64,000 nt of DNA from an uncultured Chloroflexia bacterium (lineage in GTDB: Bacteria > Chloroflexota > Limnocylindria > QHBO01), in contig CAWHAZ010000005.1 of the NCBI GenBank assembly GCA_963827475.1, positions 32,001-96,000 on the forward strand, given 5' to 3'. Below, one piece after another: positions 37,250 to 60,292 of the stretch. Position 1 is the first letter of the stretch; each line of letters begins with the position of its first letter. A model generated the notes under the pieces. It was not told the origin of the DNA. It saw nothing but the letters and a program-made list of their open reading frames with translations, and ran no database searches. The translations under genes were made by a program, and so were the position numbers.

Positions 37250-40234
37250 ATGTCGATGATGTCAGGCCGGTTCCGACGCGTGGTCGTCGGCATGGTGGCG
37301 GCGGTCGCCGTCGTTGGCCTGGCACCCGCAGCCCCGTCTCCGGATGCCGGACCGGTCAAGGTCGGCGCATCCGAGACGACCCATGCCGTCGAGCGCAGCC
37401 ACGACTTCCGCCTCGAGCCCGGCACGACGCACATCGCGATCCGGTGGTCCGGCCATCCGACGGCGACCGTCCATGCCGCCTTCAGCGCGGACGGGGCGAC
37501 CTTCGAGGACCCCATCCACGTCGAGATCGACGAGGTCGGCATGTATCGCCGGGATGGGGTCACCTACGGCGCGGTGATCGGTGTGACCGACATGCGGGCG
37601 GTGCGCGTCACCGCCGACCGTCCGCTCGCCCAGGTCACCGTCCTCTCGCTGGACGCGGCCGCGGACGTCCAGCCCGCCCTTGGTCTTGGCGCGGATGCCG
37701 CAGGACTGAACACGATTCCCGGGGTGATCCCGCGTGCCGGTTGGGGGGCGGACGAGACGATCCGCTTCGACGCGTGGGGCGAGGAGCGATGGTGGAGCCA
37801 GTACTTCCCGCTCCAGAAGCTCATCGTCCACCACACCGCCGGAGCGAACGGGGACACGAATCCGGCGGCGACGATGCGGGCCATCTACCACTACCACGCG
37901 GTCACCCAGAACTGGGGTGACATCGGCTACAACTACCTCGTCGACGCCCAGGGCCGGATCTACGAGGGGCGCCATTCGCGGGAGTACTGGAACGGCACGT
38001 CGCCGACCTCCGACAACGCGGCCGGCCAGGTCATCTCGGGCGGGCACGCGCTGTACCACAACGCCGGAACGATGGGCATCGCGCTGCTGGGGACGTTCAC
38101 GTCCTCGGCGCCCACTGCCGCGGCGCGGGCGTCGCTGGTCAACCTGCTGGCGTGGGCCGCGAGCACCCACGGCATCGACCCGAACGGGGCCACGACCTAC
38201 CTCAACCCGGTGAACGGGTACAGCCGAACCACGTACAACATCGCGGGTCATCGCGACTACAACCAGACCGGCTGCCCGGGGCTGGCGCTGTACAACCTCC
38301 TGCCGTCGATCCGCGCCTCCGTCGCGGGCCTGGTGAACACCTGGCCCGGCGAGGTGTACAACCCACCACGGCAGCTCACCCTGGCGGCAGGGACGCACGT
38401 CGGGTATCGCTTCAACTCGTCCGGGACGGTCATCGCCTCGCTTCCGTACAGCCTCGGGTCGGCGTCGTCCGCGCCGGTGAACCAGCGCGCCACGGTCCCG
38501 AACCAGTCCGGGAACTGGTACTACGTCACCGCAGGCGTGTGGGCCGGCTACTGGATGTCCGCGTCGCCCTCGGCGGTCGGGCCGGCGCCACCGGCCGTGG
38601 TGGCCGCGTCGTATCGGCCCTGGCGGCCATTGACCCTCGCGCCGGGCACGTACACCGGATACCGGTTCGACACGTACGGCAACGTCACCGGGTCGCGGGC
38701 GGCGACCCTCGGAGGATCCGCGATGGTGCCCACCACCGAGAAGAGCACCATCCCGAACCTGCCGGGGAGCTGGTACTACGTCACCGCCGGCACGTGGTCC
38801 GGCTACTGGATCGCCGAGCAGGCCGGGACGTCGCTCGGCACGCTGCCCATGGCCCAGTTCTTCTCCTCGTTCACCGCCGGGATCGCGCCCCTGACCGTCG
38901 CGTTCACGAACACCTCGATCACGTACGGGTCGGCGAGCTGGGCCTGGGACTTCGACTCGGACGGGTCGGTCGACTCCACGCAGAAGGACCCGACCTACAC
39001 CTACCCCGCGCCGGGCACGTACTCGGTGACCATGACGGTGTCGGACGGGCTGGGCACCGACACCGAGACGAAGACCAACCACGTCACCGTGCGGCCGTCG
39101 CAGGAAGGCACCTACGTCCCGTTGCCGCCCTCCCGGATGCTGGACACCCGGTTCGGCATCGGGCTCAGCGGACCATTCACCGCCCACGCGCCGCGGACCT
39201 TCCAGGTCGCCGGCCTCGGCGGTGTGCCGGCCAATGCCGTGGCGGTGACCGGCACCCTGACCGTCACCGGCCAGAGTGGCGCCGGGTACGTGTACCTCGG
39301 TCCGGATCCGACCACGGTCCCGGCCAGCTCGACGGTGAACTTCCCGGCCGGCGACACGCGGGCCTCCGGGGTGACGGTGGCGCTCGGCCCGGGCGGGATG
39401 CTGGCGGCGACCGTCGGCGGCGCGGCATCGGCCCACCTCGTGTTCGACGTGACCGGCTACTTCGTGCCCGGCGGCTCGGGGAGCACCTACGTCCCCGCTG
39501 CCGCCGGCGCGGCTGGTCGACACCGCGGTCCGGGAACGGCCTGAGCGGACCGTTCACCGCCCATGACCCCGCGGACGTTCCAGGTCGCCGGGGTGGGCGG
39601 GGTGCCGGCCACCGCGGTGGCGGTCACCGGCATCCTGGCCGTCACCGGCCAGAGCGGCGCGCGGGTTCTTCTACCTCGGCCCGGCGCCGGTCACCAGCCG
39701 ACCAGCTCGACCCTGAACTTCCCGGCCGCCGACACGCGAGCCACCGGGGTGACGGTCGCCCTCGGCCCGGGCGGAACCCTGAGCGCGACGTTCGGCTACG
39801 CCGGCAGCACCCATCTGGTGTTCGACGTGACCGGCTACTTCGTGCCCGATGGCTCCGGCGCGGCCTACGTCCCGCTCTCGCCCGTCGCGCCTGTTGGACA
39901 CCCGGACCGGCAACGGCCTGAGCGGACCGTTCACGGCGCATGACGCCGCGGACGTTCCAGGTGGCGGATCGCGGCGGCGTGCCGGCGGGCGCGGTGGCGG
40001 TCACCGGCAACCGCGACCGTCACCGGGCAGAGCGGCGCCGGGCTACGTCTTCGTCGGTCCGTCCCCGATCTCCGCAGCCGACCACCTCGACGCTGAACTT
40101 CCCGTGGGGCGACACGCGGGCGAACGGGGTGACGGTCGCCGCTCGGCCCGGACGGCACCCTGAGCGCGACGCTCGGTCCATCGGGCACGACCCACCTGAT
40201 CTGGGACGTCACCGGCTTCTTCTACGTGCCGTAG
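37250..40234 (+). CDS. Secreted N-acetylmuramoyl-L-alanine amidase (Amidase_2/PGRP) with PKD domain and three C-terminal repeats; multiple frameshifts after about 39500
   Basis: Signal peptide, IVHHTAG, WGDIGYNYLVD, IYEGR, GHRD...TGCPG; PKD SWAWDFDSDG...PTYTYPAPGTYSVTMTV. Confidence 0.88.
39108..40231 (+). repeat. Three ~375-bp internal repeats encoding YVPL..SRLLDTR...HLVFDVTGYF beta domains
   Basis: Recurrent DNA such as AGCGGACC(A/G)TTCAC, GAACTTCCCG and GACGT(G/C)ACCGGCT, three times each. Confidence 0.85.
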
Positions 40235-53171: not shown

Positions 53172-54389
53172 TCAGTCGGGGAAGGCCTCGGGGCCGCGCT
53201 CGGCAAGCTCGCGGGCCTCGGCATCGGCGTCCCTGGCCGGCAGCCAGCTGAAGGGGTAGGCCGGGTCCTCCAGCTCGCCCGCCTGGCGGGTGAGCTGGAG
53301 CGGGTGGAAGGTGTCGATCATCACCGCCAGCTCCTCGGTCGCCTCCCGACCGATGGACGCCTCGACCGTTCCCGGGTGCGGTCCGTGGGGGATCCCGGCT
53401 GGATGGACGGTGAACGAGCTGATGTCCACCCCGCGGCGGCTCATGAAGTTGCCGGCCACGTAGTAGATGACCTCGTCCGAGTTGATGTTCGAGTGGTTGT
53501 ACGGGGCGGGGATGGCCAACGGGTGGTAGTCGAACTTGCGCGGCACGAAGCTGCAGATGACGTAGTTGCGCGGCTGGAAGGTGAGGTGGACCGGCGGCGG
53601 CTGGTGGACCCGTCCGGTGATCGGTTCGAAGTCGGAGATGTTGAAGGCGAACGGCCACAGGTGCCCGTCCCAGCCGACGAGGTCGAAGGGGTGGTGCTGG
53701 TAGTGGTAGGCGGTGATCCGGCCGCGGGTCTTGACCTCGATCACGAAGTCGCCGCTCTCCGTGTTCGCCGCCATCTCGGCGGGCGGTCGAAGGTCGCGCT
53801 CGCAGTACGGGGAGTGCTCGAGGAGCTGGCCGAAGTCGTTGCGATAGCGCTTGGGCGGGACGATGGCCGACGGCGACTCGACCCACAGCATCCGCTGCGC
53901 CTCGCCCGCCGCCGGGACGACGCGGTACGTCGTTCCGATGGGAATGACCAGGTAGTCGCCGGGGCCGTAGTCGATCGGTCCGAAGATCGTCTCCAGCGTC
54001 CCGTGCCCCTCGTGGACGAACAGCATCTCGTCCGCCTCGCCGTTGCGGTAGTAGCGGGTCATCGCCTCCGCCGGCCGAACGACCCCGAAGGTGACGTCGT
54101 GGTTGAAGAACAGCGGGATCCGGCCGGAGAGGGCGTCACCGGACGGCTCGACGTCCTTGGTGTTCACCAGGTAGTGGCGATGCGGCGCGTCCGACCAGGC
54201 CTCGAGGGCGACGTCTCGAACCTTCTCGATGCGGTTGGTTCGGGTTGGCGGGGTGTGGTGGTACAGGAGGGACGCTCGACCGCTGAAGCCCTCGACCCCG
54301 AACAGCTCCTCCGCGTAGAGCGTGCCGTCGTCCTTCCGGAACTGGGTGTGGCGCTTGGGCGGCACCTGGCCGCGTTGGACGTAGAACAC
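53172..54389 (-). CDS. hmgA: Homogentisate 1,2-dioxygenase family protein
   Basis: HPFDLVGWDG, VHQPPPVH, PYNHSNINSDEV, HPAGIPHGPHP. Confidence 0.88.
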   Translation of the reverse strand: MFYVQRGQVPPKRHTQFRKDDGTLYAEELFGVEGFSGRASLLYHHTPPTRTNRIEKVRDVALEAWSDAPHRHYLVNTKDVEPSGDALSGRIPLFFNHDVTFGVVRPAEAMTRYYRNGEADEMLFVHEGHGTLETIFGPIDYGPGDYLVIPIGTTYRVVPAAGEAQRMLWVESPSAIVPPKRYRNDFGQLLEHSPYCERDLRPPAEMAANTESGDFVIEVKTRGRITAYHYQHHPFDLVGWDGHLWPFAFNISDFEPITGRVHQPPPVHLTFQPRNYVICSFVPRKFDYHPLAIPAPYNHSNINSDEVIYYVAGNFMSRRGVDISSFTVHPAGIPHGPHPGTVEASIGREATEELAVMIDTFHPLQLTRQAGELEDPAYPFSWLPARDADAEARELAERGPEAFPD

Positions 54390-54455: not shown

Positions 54456-55298
54456 TCAGCCCGTGGTCCGGCGGCGGCCCGGCCTGGGGTTGTCAGCCAC
54501 CGCCGCGAGCACCGCTTTCAGCTCGAACGGGGTCAGGCCCGGGTGCTTGGACAGGATGAGCGCGGCCATGCCGGCCACGTGGGGAGCGGCGAACGAGTTG
54601 CCGGTGGCCACCGTCTCGGTGCCGTCCTTCCAGGCGATCGGCACGTCCACGCCCCAGGCACCGAACTCGACCGGCGGGTTGGGGTTGTAGTACAGGCGCC
54701 ACTTGTCCGGCTCGGCATGCGCGGCGACCGAGACCACGCTGCTGAACAGCGACGGATACGAGGCCACGTTCACGTTGTTGGCCGCGCTGACCAGGATCAC
54801 GTTGCGGAAGTAGGCCTCGTCCGCGAGCTCGTGGAAGACGGGGTACAGGGCCTCGCTCTTCGACGACAGGCTCAGGTTGGCGACCTGGACCCCGCGCTCG
54901 ATGGCCCACGACAGCCCCTCGGCGAACGCCGCGCCCTTTCCCTTCAGGTCCTCGTTCAGGACCCGGACCGAGACGATGTCGGCGTCCGGGGCGAGGTCCA
55001 GGATGATCCCCGCGCAGGCCGTGCCGTGGCCGTAGAGGTCGATCGGCTCGTCGGGCACGACCTCCGTGTCCCCGCGCCGATCAACGCGAACCGCGACGCT
55101 TTCCACCAGCCGATCCTCGAGCCACGGATGGTCGCCCTCGACTCCACTGTCGATGACGGCCACCGTCACGCCCTTGCCGGTCGCCCCTCCCCAGGCCCAC
55201 GACCGATCGATCCGCCGCAGCCCGGCGCGACGGGCCAGCCGATCGGCCGCGGCGAATGGCTCGGCCCAGGCGGGCAGCTCCTCCGGTTCGACCGACAT
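54456..55298 (-). CDS. S8 (subtilisin-like) serine peptidase, compact, no signal peptide
   Basis: VAVIDSG (Asp), GHGTACAG (His), GNSFAAPHVAG (Ser), VSAANN. Confidence 0.92.
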   Translation of the reverse strand: MSVEPEELPAWAEPFAAADRLARRAGLRRIDRSWAWGGATGKGVTVAVIDSGVEGDHPWLEDRLVESVAVRVDRRGDTEVVPDEPIDLYGHGTACAGIILDLAPDADIVSVRVLNEDLKGKGAAFAEGLSWAIERGVQVANLSLSSKSEALYPVFHELADEAYFRNVILVSAANNVNVASYPSLFSSVVSVAAHAEPDKWRLYYNPNPPVEFGAWGVDVPIAWKDGTETVATGNSFAAPHVAGMAALILSKHPGLTPFELKAVLAAVADNPRPGRRRTTG

Positions 55299-55305
55299 CG
55301 GTCCG

Positions 55306-56100
55306 TCAGCGACGGCGGGAATAGGTGCGCCGAGAGGCCGCGTTGGCGGCAATGGCGGCCAGGACGTCGCTGACCAGGCTCAGCTCCGCCTCTCCCAGCC
55401 CCCGGAGCTGGGCCACCTGGTCCGCCAGCCGCCAGTACGGGCTGTCGGCGTCGAGGTCCATGTCGTCGGAAGCCGCGGCGACCAGGGCATCGAGCTGGGC
55501 ATCGGTCAGGCCGTTGCCGGTGGCTCGGGAGAAGGCGGTGCGGAGCAGCTGCGGCAGCTCGCGTTGGGCTCGGGTCACGGCGATGGCGGTCGCGGCCTGG
55601 GCGGCGAAGACCCCGATCAGCTCCATGTCGCGGAGGTCGAAGGTGGCCGATCCCTTCTTGTCGAGGACCTGGAGCACGCCGTGGGTGCCCAGCTCATCGG
55701 TGAGGGGCACGGCGGCGATCGAACGGGGCACGTAGCCGGTCTTCTCCGCCGTCTTGCGGTCGAACCGTGGATCCGACGCGACGTCTGACAGGGCAATGGC
55801 CTGGCCGGTGGAGTACACGAAGCCGGCGATGCCCTGGCTCGGTTTCACGCTCTTCCCGATCGCGCCCGCGCCCTGCGGGCCAGCGGCGACCCGAAACTCG
55901 AGCCGGTCGGGGTTGCGCTCGAAGAGCGCGATCGACGCCGCCTCGGCGTCGAACAGGCGGACCGTGGCATCCACGATCGACTGCAGGAGACGCTCCTCTC
56001 CGCCGGGGTGGAGCCGATCGGCCACCGCGGCCCGCTCGGCCCCGGCGCGAACGATGGCCAGCGCCTGGTCCAGGGCCCGCGACGAGGGGCGGCTGCTCAT
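55306..56100 (-). CDS. Stand-alone GAF-domain protein
   Basis: DAEAASIAL, GIAGFV, DVASDPRF, RSIAAVPL, GVLQVLDK, FDLRDMEL. Confidence 0.88.
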   Translation of the reverse strand: MSSRPSSRALDQALAIVRAGAERAAVADRLHPGGEERLLQSIVDATVRLFDAEAASIALFERNPDRLEFRVAAGPQGAGAIGKSVKPSQGIAGFVYSTGQAIALSDVASDPRFDRKTAEKTGYVPRSIAAVPLTDELGTHGVLQVLDKKGSATFDLRDMELIGVFAAQAATAIAVTRAQRELPQLLRTAFSRATGNGLTDAQLDALVAAASDDMDLDADSPYWRLADQVAQLRGLGEAELSLVSDVLAAIAANAASRRTYSRRR

Positions 56101-56111
56101 CGGGGCATAGC

Positions 56112-56143
56112 GTAAGGCGGCGGGGGGAGCCCCGCCGCCTTAC
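56112..56143 (-). terminator. 14-bp perfect stem-loop after the repeat-protein gene
   Basis: GTAAGGCGGCGGGG-GGAG-CCCCGCCGCCTTAC (plus strand). Confidence 0.75.
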
Positions 56144-56161
56144 CTGCTCGGGAAGCTGTCG

Positions 56162-56680
56162 TTACCGCTTCTTGGCCGGCGATGCCTTGGCCTTTGCCCG
56201 CGCTCGGGCGTGGCCCTGGGTGTCGTCACCGGTCGCCCGCTTCTTGGCGGGAGATGCGGCCTTGGCCTTCGCCCGGGCTCGGGCGTGGCCCTCGGTGTCG
56301 TCATCGGCGCGGGTGCGGGCCCGGGTCTTCGCCTTGCTGACGGCGCGGGTCTTGGCCTTGGCGTGGGCGTGGCCCTCGGTGTCGTCATCGGCGCGGGTGC
56401 GGGCCCGAGTCTTCGCCTTGCTGACGGCGCGGGTCTTGGCCTTGGCGTGAGCGTGGCCCTCGGTGTCGTCATCGGCGCGGGTGCGGGCCCGAGTCTTCGC
56501 CTTGCTGACGGCACGAGTCTTGGCCTTGGCGTGGGCGTGGCCCTCGGTGTCGTCATCGGCGCGGGTACGGGCCCGAGTCTTCGCCTTGCTGACGGCACGA
56601 GTCTTGGCCTTGGTATGGGCGTGGCCTTCCACGTCCTCGTCTCCGGAGACGCGGCCCCGGACTCTGGCTCTCTGGTCCAT
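56162..56680 (-). CDS. Tandem-repeat protein, putative multi-cassette peptide precursor (DDTEGH repeats)
   Basis: GGGAGG RBS; six D-D-[TV]-[EQ]-G-H motifs, each followed by an Ala/Lys/Arg-rich cassette. Confidence 0.8.
   Translation of the reverse strand: MDQRARVRGRVSGDEDVEGHAHTKAKTRAVSKAKTRARTRADDDTEGHAHAKAKTRAVSKAKTRARTRADDDTEGHAHAKAKTRAVSKAKTRARTRADDDTEGHAHAKAKTRAVSKAKTRARTRADDDTEGHARARAKAKAASPAKKRATGDDTQGHARARAKAKASPAKKR
56285..56620 (-). repeat. 4 x 84-bp coding tandem repeat (AHAKAKTRAVSKAKTRARTRADDDTEGH)
   Basis: Visible directly; copies differ mostly at synonymous positions. Confidence 0.92.
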
Positions 56681-56739
56681 GGTGGTTTCTAGCCTCCCGA
56701 TTGTTGCTCCGGACCCGATGGCCCGGAATCTCGGGCCTC

Positions 56740-56807
56740 ACGGTATGGAACCAGCCTTGCCGGTACCGATCACACCGGCGACAGCTGGGGTGTCAATTGG
56801 CCGACAC
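56740..56807 (-). promoter_or_regulatory. Putative CRP/FNR-activated promoter of the repeat gene
   Basis: TGTCA-N6-CGACA (56791-56806), GATCA-N6-CGACA (56768-56783), -10 TACCGT (56745-56740). Confidence 0.5.
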
Positions 56808-56823
56808 GGCGCTCCGGCCGATC

Positions 56824-57534
56824 CTAGCGAACCGCGAGTTGTTCCAGACGGTCGAGATCGGGGATCACCAATGTCTCGCGCTCGATGCGCACCAGTCCGC
56901 GATCGACGAGGTCGACCAGCAGCCGGTTCACGCTCTGGCGCGTGGCGCCAATCATGGCAGCCAGATCGGATTGTGTGAAGGGCCATTCGAGCCGGGCCTC
57001 CAGGCGGCCGTCATCGGTGCGCTGCGGCGGAGGATCCGCCTCCCGGGCCAGGCGCACGAGGCGGCTGGCCAGCCGCCCGCTGAGGTCGAGGAAGTGGAGC
57101 TCCTCGACGTGCCCGGTCAGGCGCCGCAGCTCGGCGGCCAGCGAGCGGAGCAGGCAGTCGCGCAGCCGCTCGCTGCGCCCGATCTCCTCGAGGAACGTGT
57201 CCCGGGGCAGGCTCACCGTCTCGGTCGCCTCGACCGCGGCAGCGGTCGCGGAACGTGGCGAGCCGTCCAGCAGGGAGAGCTCGCCGAAGAAGTCGCCCGG
57301 ATGGAGCGTGGCGATGATCGCCTCGTCGCCCTCGTCCGAGGACAGCACGATCTTCACCGCCCCCGACGCGACGACGTGCAGGGCATCGGCCGGATCGCCC
57401 TCGTGGAAGATGACCTCGCCCCGCCGGAATCGGCGGCGGCGGACATGGCGGACGACCTCCGCCAGATCTTCCGGCTCCGCACCGGTGAACAGCGGGCACC
57501 GCAACAGCAGGCCCAGGGTCACATCGTCAGCCAT
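56824..57534 (-). CDS. Crp/Fnr-family transcriptional regulator
   Basis: IFHEGD, FFGELSLLDGSPRSATA cNMP pocket, HTH TQSDLAAMIGATRQSVNRLL. Confidence 0.95.
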   Translation of the reverse strand: MADDVTLGLLLRCPLFTGAEPEDLAEVVRHVRRRRFRRGEVIFHEGDPADALHVVASGAVKIVLSSDEGDEAIIATLHPGDFFGELSLLDGSPRSATAAAVEATETVSLPRDTFLEEIGRSERLRDCLLRSLAAELRRLTGHVEELHFLDLSGRLASRLVRLAREADPPPQRTDDGRLEARLEWPFTQSDLAAMIGATRQSVNRLLVDLVDRGLVRIERETLVIPDLDRLEQLAVR

Positions 57535-59199
57535 TGCTCGGTCCCTCCTCGGCGGAAGCGTCCAGGCGCGCCGCGGCGCCGCGGTGCATGTCCAGCAGGC
57601 GTGAGGTGAGCCCCGGCCCGGCACCCACCAGCTCGAGGAATCGCTGGACCGTCGAGCGCGAGCAGCGCGCCCTCCGCGGCGGCGGTCACGGTCGCGGTTC
57701 GCGGCACGCTGCGCAGCAGTCCGATCTCCCCGAAAACCTCGTCCGGCCCCAGCGTCCGGAGGAACCGCGGCGCGCCGCCCGGATCCTTGGTCTGGGTCAC
57801 CTCGAACGCCCCGTCGAGGATGTGGAAGAAGCGATCCGCGGGGTCGCCCTGGCGGACCACGACCTCACCCGGCAGGACCCGCACGCGAGACAGGTGGCGG
57901 GCAGCCTGCTCCAGGGAGGCGGGCGAAGGCCCATCGAAGAGCGGCAGCCGGACGAAGCGGTCCGCGCCCGGGTCGAGGCGGAGGCGCCGCCGATCGGCCG
58001 ACCACCAGCGTCCCGATCAGGGTGGCCGCGACCATCGCGATGCCAAACCCCAGGAGGACGACGACCGGTCCGACGATCGCCGCCAGGACCGGAGCCAGGA
58101 AAGCGCCGAGCGCGTAGGCGGTCACGGTCACCGTGTCCATCGCGCCGATGGTCCGGCCCCGGATCGCGTCGGGCACCTCGCGCTGGAAGATGGTGGTGGC
58201 CACCACCTCGAGGACGAGCATTCCCGCGGTCGCCACCGCCATGGCGGCGATGGCCGCCAGCAGCACCGCCGACTGGCCGACCAGGATCACCCCGACACCC
58301 AGGGTCACGCCGCCCACCGCCAGCGGGACGTCGAGCCGGCGACGGAGGGTCATCGGTCCCGCGACCAGCGCCCCGATCAGCCCGCCCAGCCCGATCGCCG
58401 CGTTCAGCCACCCGGTCCCCGCGTCGCCCGCCCCGAGCACCTCGATGGCGATGACCACGGTCAGCACGGCCAGCCCGCCCGACACGAACCCATCGACCAG
58501 GTTGATGAGCCCGAGGCCCGAGAGCGGCCGGATCGCCGGTCGCACCGCTTCCCGGAAGGCCGGCTGTGGCTCCGCTCCCGCGTCCTCGGCGGCGACCCGG
58601 CCCCGGGCCTGATCACGAGGCAGACGCCACAGGACCGCGGCGACGACCATGAAGCTGACCGCGTTCAGGAAGAAGGCGAGCGGAATGCTGCCCAGGCTGA
58701 TGAGGATGGCGCCGACCGCCGGCCCGATGATGAACGCGAGGTTGTCCAGGCTCGACCACGCCGCGTTGGCCGGGCCGAGCTCGCGCTCATCGGTGACCAG
58801 GGTCGGGATGAGCGAGCCGATGGCCGGCGAGAAGAAGGCGGAGAAGCATGCCGCCAGCAGGCTGAGCGCGACGATGAGCAGGATGTCCCCGCCCAGCAGG
58901 GTCAGGGCGGTGAGGGCGAGCATGATCAGCCCGCGGGCGACGTCGGTGACGATCAGGATGAGACGGCGGTCGTACCGATCGGCGGCGATGCCGGCCGGGA
59001 CCGACAGCAGGATGTAGGGCACGATCCGGGCCGCGCCGACGATCCCGAGCACGAGCGGCGACGCTCCGGATCGGTACACGACCACCAGCAGGGCGACGAG
59101 GTACAGCCAGTCGCCGATGGATGACACGAACTCCCCGACGAACAGGCGGGCGAGGGCCGGATTGGCGAAGACACGCCGGTAGGTCGCGAGGCTGCCCAT
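57527..59199 (-). CDS. MFS transporter fused to C-terminal cyclic-nucleotide-binding domain (frameshifts near 57890-57990 and 57645)
   Basis: GIAADRYDRRLIL MFS motif, about 12 TM; then VVRQGDPADRF, FGEIGLLRSVPRTATV. Confidence 0.85.
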
Positions 59200-59236
59200 C
59201 GGTCCGGCCAGTCTAGTGCGTACACTCGGCACGCCC

Positions 59237-60292
59237 ATGGCGGTCCCGGTCATTCGCTCCAACGCCCACCTCGCCCACGACAAGCTCGTGGAGGTCGACT
59301 TCGGGAAGCCGATTCCCGGGTACGAGGTGCCCGCTCGCGCGATCGAGATCGAGAACGCGCTGGTCGAGGCCGGCGGCTATCGGTTCGAGGAACCGACCCA
59401 CCATGGGGAGCTGCCGATCCTCGCCGTCCACGACCAGGCGCTGCTCGAGGTCCTGGCCACCGCCTGGGAGGACGCGATTGCCGCCGGCGTCACCGACGGC
59501 ACCCAGCCGCTCATCCCGGGCACCCTGCTGACGACGGCCTACGCCGCCGGCCACGACACCGGCCTGCCGGCCCCCGGCTATCGGCTGTTCGGCTACACGT
59601 TCGACACCGCCACCCCGATCGTGGCGGGCACCTACCGCGCCGCGCGCGTCTCGGTGGACGTGGCCCTCACCGCCCTCGACCGGTCCCGCGGCGGGGCGCA
59701 CATCGCGTACGGCCTGTGCCGCCCGCCGGGCCACCATGCGGGGCGTGCCCTGTACGGCGGCTATTGCTTCTTCAACAACGCGGCGATCGTGGCCCAGGCG
59801 CTCTCGGACGGCGGCGCGTCCCGGGTCGCGATCCTCGACATCGACTACCACCACGGGAACGGGACGCAGCAGCTGTTCTGGGAGCGTCACGACGTGCTGT
59901 ACGTCTCGCTCCACGGCGACCCGAGCCGCGCCTATCCGTATTACTCCGGCTACGACAACGAGGTCGGCTTCGGGGCGGGCGAGGGCATGAACCTGAACAT
60001 TCCGCTCCCCCCGCGGACCGACGGCGATGCCTACCTCGCGGCGCTGGAGATCGGGTTGCAGGCCATCCAGGACCACGACCCCGACAGCCCGCTCGTCGTG
60101 TCCCTCGGCTTCGACACCTTCGAGCGCGACCCGATCGCCGATTTCGCGCTGAAGACCGAGGACTACCACCGGATCGGTGCCGCGATCGGTGAGCTCGATC
60201 GGCCGGTCATCGCGCTCCAGGAAGGCGGATACGCGATCGACGCGCTGGGGGCCAACGCCGCCAGCTTCTTCGCGGGCCTCCGGGGCCGATAG
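59237..60292 (+). CDS. Histone deacetylase family / acetylpolyamine amidohydrolase-like protein
   Basis: RPPGHHA, GYCFFNN, DIDYHHGNGTQ, SLGFD, QEGGY. Confidence 0.93.
   Translation: MAVPVIRSNAHLAHDKLVEVDFGKPIPGYEVPARAIEIENALVEAGGYRFEEPTHHGELPILAVHDQALLEVLATAWEDAIAAGVTDGTQPLIPGTLLTTAYAAGHDTGLPAPGYRLFGYTFDTATPIVAGTYRAARVSVDVALTALDRSRGGAHIAYGLCRPPGHHAGRALYGGYCFFNNAAIVAQALSDGGASRVAILDIDYHHGNGTQQLFWERHDVLYVSLHGDPSRAYPYYSGYDNEVGFGAGEGMNLNIPLPPRTDGDAYLAALEIGLQAIQDHDPDSPLVVSLGFDTFERDPIADFALKTEDYHRIGAAIGELDRPVIALQEGGYAIDALGANAASFFAGLRGR

Follow-up and report, generated by a model that had tools for sequence, protein, structure and literature searches.

The subject of this analysis is a set of five minus-strand genes in a 64,000-nt stretch of DNA (contig CAWHAZ010000005.1, positions 32,001 to 96,000; the window throughout) from an uncultured Chloroflexia bacterium of the lineage Limnocylindria (Chloroflexota). 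They encode a major facilitator superfamily (MFS) transporter fused to a cyclic nucleotide monophosphate (cNMP)-binding domain, a Crp/Fnr regulator, a repetitive protein in which an acidic motif recurs, a stand-alone GAF protein and a compact protease of family S8. Together they are a real and apparently undescribed gene set, which would represent a form of leader-peptidase-based peptide maturation under cyclic-nucleotide control. In the reading that we consider on balance probable, though far from secure, the S8 enzyme would be a cNMP-induced, GAF-gated peptidase of the type that removes leaders from ribosomally synthesised, post-translationally modified peptides (RiPPs), in this case dicing a multi-cassette precursor that carries no modifications; its pieces would be exported, with signalling as their probable role. 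An earlier reading of the letters alone (the original prediction) had claimed five co-oriented genes, two with cNMP-binding domains, and no adjacent YcaO, radical S-adenosylmethionine (SAM) or Lan enzyme, all of which stands: PF00027 is found in both the MFS fusion and the Crp/Fnr protein, and the three radical-SAM matches in the window's genome all lie more than 500 kb from the module. YcaO gave no match in this 90%-complete genome, the control giving matches in 5/14, and LanC-like proteins gave none either, which is a weak blank because the LanC control matched nowhere.

That these genes belong together is seen when the S8 protease is followed from locus to locus. Eighty loci came from a genome collection, with L002-L057 (minus L055) representing the S8 family, mostly at 50% identity or more, and L058-L081 plus L055 serving as generic S8 controls (28-37% identity). 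The family set came to 155 loci including 80 metagenome loci and 20 genome regions, from which 89 with shorter flanks were dropped before counting, leaving 66 flanked by 2.5 kb or more at either end. A GAF gene lies beside the S8 in all 66, and a motif-bearing open reading frame (ORF) in 61 (43 of them multi-site), so that homologous S8/GAF loci do carry the repeat ORFs for which the original prediction had asked. A cNMP domain is present in 56, a Crp helix-turn-helix (HTH) in 40 and an MFS transporter in 39. Cyclases of class III are found in 17 and STAND domains in 14, the latter in adjacent genes that combine a cyclase, STAND and tetratricopeptide repeats (cyclase-STAND-TPR). None of the module genes occurred in the 15 flanked controls (GAF in 0), where a single chance motif was found in one. 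Gene order and strand are shuffled between loci and membership is constant; the gene set is a module rather than a case of synteny. The GAF gene likewise adjoins the S8 in 20/20 matches fetched outside Limnocylindria and in all 20 fetched of 28 Actinomycetota matches.

The window S8 is a subtilase (PF00082, 113 bits against a cut-off of 21.8) whose D50, H91, N175 and S235 are invariant in 84 S8 sequences and whose structure model has the subtilisin fold. It has neither a signal peptide nor an I9 prodomain, and its catalytic domain begins near residue 40. Ahead of this, at residues 8-15, the family has a conserved N-terminal L/R-P-A-W-S-x-x-F segment, modelled with low confidence, which brings to mind the extension that inhibits intracellular subtilisins. 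Other family members are fused to a degenerate protein-kinase domain (P0005, P0007, P0010, P0011, P0013, P0041, P0042), a LuxR HTH (P0018) or an ATP-binding cassette (ABC) transporter (P0026).

Where this enzyme might cut can be approached through the S8 proteases of RiPP pathways. For PatA, CylA, LicP and AprE one report (PMC10885120) gives cuts that follow G(L/V)E(A/P)S, GDVQAE, NDVNPE and GDMEAA, respectively, and in another (PMC6054071) a LicP model has Asp read at P5 and Val at P4 in addition to P1. The precursor motif D-[VT]-E-G-H fits these registers as P5-P1, and by this analogy suggests a cut after the His. An alternative register, with the cut before the His or after the Val/Thr, fits less well, both with the known registers and with the exchange of His, Gln and Tyr at the end of the motif. 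Residue 145 of the S8 is placed by alignment on the S125-L126-G127 binding strand of subtilisin, and is Gly in 8/8 Tyr-type loci, Ser in 34/34 His-type loci and Ser in 5/6 Gln-type loci. This co-variation with the last residue of the motif is what a P1 residue would be expected to show, and is consistent with the proposed cut, but it does not constitute an independent test because the classes follow clades.

The same GAF+S8 pair also occurs inside RiPP clusters of other Chloroflexota and of large actinomycete genomes. L166 and L181 encode a class IV LanL (670 bits, cut-off 650), a cNMP-domain ABC transporter and NHLP-like precursors whose leaders end in D-V-M-G-Y, E-V-A-G-Y or E-V-R-G-Y, followed by Cys-rich cores. 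YcaO-TfuA accompanies an Os1348-type NHLP precursor in L171 (48.5, cut-off 40), while L165 and L201 combine radical SAM and iron redox enzymes with aroma-sacti precursors (59.3 and 74.7, cut-off 30), in which a core of 9 residues follows leaders that end in D-V-Q-G-Y and E-V-Q-A-H. Plasmid NZ_CP108138 of Streptomyces sp. NBC_00184 unites a radical SAM enzyme, an iron redox enzyme, an aroma-sacti precursor, a cyclase, S8, GAF and MFS. In such loci [DE]-V-x-[GA]-[YH] closes the leader and separates it from the core. An enzyme that could modify the precursor is present in L165, L166, L171 and L198-L202, and none is adjacent to the window module.

Intermediate precursors (L123, L137, L147, L148, L155) have multiple EGH sites behind a helical leader, and this leader has matches, even with the motif removed, in those of single-core VQGY precursors (9/10 reciprocal scores exceed all 100 shuffles). 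Aroma-sacti leaders gave no match to the helical-leader profiles, and the link to these clusters therefore rests on the S8, the GAF protein and the motif. Enzymes of RiPP clusters and of repeat-type loci are intermixed in the S8 tree, with L198-L201 grouping with Gaiellales-type repeat loci (SH-aLRT 99); this was a quick IQ-TREE run on 71 sequences, with 5 rows skipped and a long-branch warning, and gives no direction of evolution. The window S8 shares 45% identity with that of L201, and the window GAF 37% with that of L166. The original prediction had cited cyanobactin pathways as a parallel; the closer relatives are the NHLP, aroma-sacti and lanthipeptide clusters that share the GAF+S8 pair.

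The precursor in the window is built from an 84-nt unit present in 4.1 copies at 96% match, and has 50 Lys/Arg and 23 Asp/Glu among its 172 residues. Predicted cuts after each motif His would give pieces of 20, 28, 28, 28, 28, 25 and 15 residues, and the cassettes have net charges of +4 to +7. It matched no Pfam family, gave no usable ESM Atlas match and lacks the NF045560, NF038399 or TIGR03793 leader domains that are matched in homologous loci. No hydrophobic signal stretch was found in the window S8, GAF or precursor, and no further coding ORF bearing the strict motif in the window's genome. A loose DNA pattern for the motif was dropped, having matched 75 of the 80 genomes tried (of 151), and cannot separate carriers from non-carriers.

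Across lineages the acidic motif is constant and the cores are wholly different; the repeat period ranges from 12 to 70 residues and the number of sites reaches ten. Basic residues are frequent directly after the motif, and many precursors either have two sites in just 47-80 residues or bear cores that are neutral or acidic. The cationic peptides of the original prediction are thus not a general product of the family, the cores being wholly lineage-specific. If the peptides were cationic antimicrobials or other membrane-active effectors, the charge of the window cassettes, the basic residues after the motif and the RiPPs made by sister clusters would find a ready explanation, but the tail kept by each cassette would be acidic, the cores of many lineages are short, neutral or acidic and no immunity gene was seen, and we consider this quite improbable. 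The basic composition could also mean that the intact protein, rich in Lys, Arg and Ala, is the active species, whether it binds nucleic acids, forms condensates or stores amino acids, and that a signal leads the gated S8 to degrade it, with the MFS serving otherwise; spore small acid-soluble proteins and their protease offer an analogy. Low-complexity, unconserved cores and the 27/66 loci in which the MFS is missing would suit such a role, yet the many two-site precursors and the neutral or acidic cores would not, and homologous precursors bear RiPP leaders and accompany exporters. We regard an intact functional protein as unlikely.

The last residue of the motif bears on a further possibility. 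Most loci have His there, a lineage of loci around L190-L195 has Gln, and several loci of RiPP type have Tyr; among ORFs already holding one canonical site, His closes 197/203 sites, and the L194 and L195 precursors use Gln throughout. Peptides ending in His might bind Cu or Ni and be exported as metallophores, and the MFS does resemble EntS, below cut-off. Whole precursors with Gln or Tyr are hard to reconcile with this, as is the co-variation of the residue with the S8 pocket, and a metallophore role seems to us highly improbable. Under the reading we prefer, the S8 would recognise [DE]-[DE]-[VT]-x-[GA]-[HQY] as P6-P1 and cut after the last residue, as homologous RiPP precursors and the known S8 registers suggest, giving short peptides that consist of a core plus acidic tail and one final C-terminal peptide.

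The suggestion that the GAF protein regulates the protease finds support in fusions and in modelling. GAF-S8 fusions account for 5/25 of the longer S8 hits scanned, and the modelled complex of the window pair scores 0.62 compared with 0.02 for the best control. The mark used for this score was reached by 116/157 solved complexes and 2/215 mismatched pairs, and is roughly valid for alignments of our own; contacts agreed between runs to at least 81%, with a partner pLDDT of at least 67. At the modelled interface H91, 143-147, N175 and 229-236 of the S8, and with them the catalytic S235, face residues 97-107 of the GAF protein among others, which supports the GAF protein as a predicted partner and gate sitting over the active site. 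It may there replace the missing prodomain, presumably as a gate whose opening or closing depends on a ligand. The GAF model itself has a pLDDT of 87.6, and the ten folds nearest to it include GAFs that bind cAMP or cGMP, with Lcd1-cAMP, PDE2A, PDE10A and CyaB2 among them.

Control of the precursor by Crp, as originally proposed, is supported by a conserved operator. An unbiased search for dyads in the 200 nt upstream of multi-site ORFs, reduced from 75 regions to 59 non-redundant ones, gave TGTC-N8-GACA in 34/59, mostly 120-145 nt upstream, compared with 0 in 20 shuffled sets. The window's sole match stands in front of the precursor gene and is not significant alone, given that 58/100 shuffles give at least one. 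Where the position of the recognition helix that we take to correspond to CRP Glu181 is Gln or Pro, this site is found in 55/70 rows, while TGTGA-N6-TCAYA is found in 5/7 rows with a Glu-type Crp and 0/73 other rows. The site is thus predicted to be that of Crp, and co-varies with the recognition helix. In its cNMP domain, Crp HTH and palindromic site the window regulator has the features of the Crp/Fnr family. A cNMP, probably cAMP from a class III cyclase of the cell, would activate Crp, which when bound to TGTC-N8-GACA would drive the precursor gene. TGTC-N8-GACA is not enriched across the window's genome (11 sites, fewer than at neighbouring spacings), and we therefore claim no regulon. 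The hairpin between the precursor and GAF genes may curb read-through or make the precursor mRNA more stable.

Motif-bearing proteins of two further classes recur in family loci (Table 1). Members of one lie near the module and usually have a single D-[VT]-E-G-H site and, behind it, a charged helical tail of 35-45 residues that is conserved and of which there are 8 distinct examples; those of the other have two sites about 23 residues apart, then a hydrophobic helix, and in L017 and L022 a near-match to the operator lies upstream of the gene. The L056 member of the latter class matched no Pfam or NCBIfam family, and the membrane-anchored motif protein found solely unnamed clusters in the ESM Atlas, at 0.76-0.78. 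A D-T-E-G-H in L065 (1929-3191) is coincidental, being the catalytic-His segment of an unrelated S8. It is conceivable that the precursor is a decoy or timer that occupies the S8 until other motif-bearing targets are cut, the output being regulated proteolysis inside the cell, and the recurrence of both classes in family loci, two of the genes with a near-match operator, would accord with this. However, the additional classes occur in a minority of loci and the window's genome showed no other strict-motif coding ORF, and so we would put little weight on a decoy.

Export would fall to the cNMP-fused MFS, which we propose carries the peptides across the membrane. Its gene ends within that of Crp, stop and start overlapping by 8 nt. 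The claimed fusion is one uninterrupted frame of 551-557 residues in 11/11 relatives checked, but in the window assembly it is broken by two single-base insertions, near 57986 and 57644. The extra base at 57646 is missing in public contigs from 4/4 runs and that at 57979 in one run's contig, and both insertions are therefore probably assembly errors. The whole stretch is evenly covered by contigs of one DNA run and of three metatranscriptome runs from a single study; neither transcription nor its level follows from this.

Class III cyclases match at 17 places in the window's genome (a 1.9 Mb assembly), with an adjoining STAND match at 10; the nearest, C5:98320, lies about 7 kb past the MFS gene, just beyond the window. 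The lineage-specific peptides might carry signals between cells, perhaps with feedback by way of cyclase-STAND-TPR proteins, a proposal that we find plausible but cannot quite bring ourselves to favour; it is the weakest step because a cyclase is adjacent in just 17/66 loci and the cores are of low complexity. A complete peptide-cAMP circuit can also be imagined for soil Chloroflexota and Actinomycetota, in which nucleotide would release an inhibitory GAF protein, exported peptides would be sensed by cyclase-STAND-TPR proteins, cAMP would close a positive loop via Crp, GAF and transporter, and the same peptidase would time RiPP leader removal, and as a whole we find this rather doubtful. The cyclases also raise the idea of anti-phage defence or stress suicide, with the STAND cyclase sensing infection and the cNMP-gated MFS or protease as effector, in line with the adjacent cyclase-STAND-TPR genes of 14/66 loci and a domain-level likeness to parts of Pycsar. 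PADLOC matches nevertheless reflect shared domains alone, with no full-length match to system components, and the module occupies a fixed position in close relatives and is found in 39/50 family genomes, unlike patchy defence islands, which leaves a defence role with next to no credibility in our view.

Several points weigh against the gated export of diced peptides as signals, and should temper its interpretation. Cleavage, nucleotide binding, export and signalling are all predictions from sequence and models. The motif expression behind the linkage counts was fixed after the data had been seen, and no precursor was seen in several loci, for example L041-L043, L185, L192 and L197. The MFS is absent in 27/66 flanked loci and the cyclase in 49/66, the window module being among those lacking a cyclase. 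With their low complexity and nothing common between lineages, the cores would be odd for a receptor ligand. Loops like the one that the model puts at the active site are common in GAF domains, and this one may have been placed there as a mere substrate. GAF domains that bind cNMPs are marked by an NKFDE motif; the window GAF reads D-K-F-D-E, with Asp for Asn, and Nocardioides-type GAFs lack the remainder as well, and therefore nucleotide binding by the GAF protein is not assured. Two Glu-type Crps pair with TGTC sites, and the co-variation of Crp and operator is not independent since it follows clades.

Table 1. Positions of the module features in the window, and of other motif-bearing proteins in family loci (locus:positions).
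Feature	Position	Strand	Details
MFS transporter with C-terminal cNMP-binding domain	59199-57527	minus	PF07690/PF05977, PF00027
Crp/Fnr regulator	57534-56824	minus	PF00027 + PF13545; phosphate-binding cassette GELSLLDGSPRSA; recognition helix R-Q-S-V-N-R
Predicted Crp operator, TGTC-N8-GACA	56791-56806		palindromic; 111-126 nt 5' of precursor start
Multi-cassette precursor	56680-56162	minus	172 aa; six D-[VT]-[EQ]-G-H sites
Hairpin	56112-56143		perfect 14-bp GC-rich stem, 4-nt loop; between precursor stop and GAF start; read from sequence
Stand-alone GAF protein	56100-55306	minus	helical extensions; Pfam, structure model
Compact S8 protease	55298-54456	minus	280 aa, predicted cytoplasmic; D50, H91, N175, S235
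Single-site helical-tail proteins, part 1	L085:1120-2259, L090:1065-1595, L103:5445-5762, L104:3686-3952		
Single-site helical-tail proteins, part 2	L113:494-757, L116:2357-2644, L119:5750-5992, L129:1798-2463		
Two-site hydrophobic-helix proteins	L017:9376-10236, L022:2254-3003, L056:851-1612, L103:14580-15788, L107:2939-3532		

The nearest relatives of the window S8 (88-97% identity) belong to records mostly named Candidatus Limnocylindria or uncultured Chloroflexota, and the window itself has a base composition of about 70% GC. With the S8 profile, carriers were found among 60/151 genomes of the class (39/50 in the window's family, 0/49 in another family), 34/301 of the phylum and 27/401 of the phylum of Nocardioides oceani, where blanks are not absences because the candidates of each genome were scored only in part; the tallies take in the unpublished G084 and G120 (class) and G541 and G509 (phylum of Nocardioides oceani). 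At least 7,868 sequence clusters, of 8,000 scored, match the profile at E <= 1e-80. Cultured carriers include Nocardioides oceani SOB77, N. bigeumensis JCM 16021, Streptomyces sp. NBC_00184 and Miltoncostaea oceani.

In close relatives the module has a fixed position between two other genes, that for homogentisate dioxygenase (hmgA, 53172-54389), downstream of the S8, and one of the histone-deacetylase family (59216-60292), divergent from the MFS. Both are linked in close kin only, the deacetylase in 13/66 loci and hmgA in 16/66, and were rejected as module members. In L123, L137, L148 and L155 genes for a response-regulator cyclase and a cNMP-SpoIIE phosphatase precede the module upstream of Crp (by Pfam in L123 and L148 only), an oligopeptidase F-like gene is inserted between S8 and MFS in L148 and L154, and Thermoleophilia-type loci (L050:7169-7738, L051, L196, L203) have an extracytoplasmic function sigma factor and a small Os1348-like protein in place of Crp. 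Elsewhere in the window, at 39108-40222, is a tandem array with a 378-nt unit (2.9 copies, 80% matches).

Comparison with known systems places the module close to several and inside none. LicP, CylA and AprE/mersacidin of class II lanthipeptide pathways likewise have the S8 fold, and the hexapeptides that they read have Asp at position P5, either Val or Met at P4 and a small residue at P2 (PMC10885120, PMC6054071): NDVNPE, GDVQAE and GDMEAA compare with DDVEGH and GDVQGY in the module family. These LanP enzymes are secreted preproenzymes with a prodomain that act once on modified peptides, whereas the module S8 is predicted to be cytoplasmic, lacks a prodomain, has a GAF protein at its side and would face up to ten sites in an unmodified precursor. 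The window enzyme falls outside LanP of the LicP/CylA type, with no signal stretch, a catalytic domain from about residue 40 and no LanC-like match (the control being weak).

Cyanobactin PatA is also an S8 that cuts after a motif, G(L/V)E(A/P)S (PMC10885120). The window differs in lacking a second protease, macrocyclase or YcaO, and TIGR03895, the model of the PatA/PatG protease family, scores 27.3 compared with a cut-off of 421. The PatE precursor does have a multi-cassette layout with repeated recognition sites, and the pat pathway is not known to be under cNMP control.

The best short NCBIfam match to the window S8 is QhpE (NF049966), at 111.7 bits and below the cut-off of 165. QhpE is likewise a compact cytoplasmic subtilisin that strips a leader before export, but acts once on an enzyme subunit (PMC7876137); the window locus has no qhpABCD, its neighbours being hmgA, GAF, Crp, MFS and the deacetylase. 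Aroma-sacti (NF045560) and NHLP/Os1348 clusters share homologous S8 and GAF proteins, the leader-end motif and a nearby cyclase or cNMP-fused transporter, and differ in having modifying enzymes and single cores; of these clusters the precursor domain alone is a named family. By analogy, then, the module would work as a LanP/PatA-like leader peptidase acting on a multi-cassette precursor, and lies outside QhpE, cyanobactins, LanP and RiPPs in the strict sense. In layout alone it may also be likened to fungal Kex2, a subtilisin-type enzyme that dices repeat proteins and alpha-factor into unmodified signals, at dibasic sites and in the secretory path, and to RRNPP/Phr systems, in which peptide signals are read by TPR proteins, the precursors being secreted first and no cNMP relay taking part.

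The claim that no named system has this architecture has held, and no published description of the module was found in the literature searched, with supplements and most subscription papers beyond its reach. In the accessible text of the StsA paper the leader cut site is stated to be unknown, and GAF, cyclase and peptidase are unmentioned (PMC10288494). Adenylate cyclases are noted in some graspetide loci, again with GAF unmentioned in the part available (PMC8939145), and the module S8 is omitted from the list of known RiPP S8 proteases in the portion of the WprP preprint at hand (10.1101/2025.10.18.683210).

Taken together, these data suggest that RiPP processing machinery could, without modifying enzymes, dice repeat proteins in abundant and mostly uncultured soil bacteria. 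A small-molecule-sensing GAF subunit that gates a subtilisin would be a type of control that was not found described in the literature searched, and a protease that is sequence-specific and possibly switchable would make a useful tool. For class IV lanthipeptide, YcaO-TfuA and aroma-sacti cluster types the module also provides a leader peptidase and a cut site that can be tested and, if the proposal is true, the timing of leader removal would fall to such a gated enzyme in several RiPP classes without an assigned protease.

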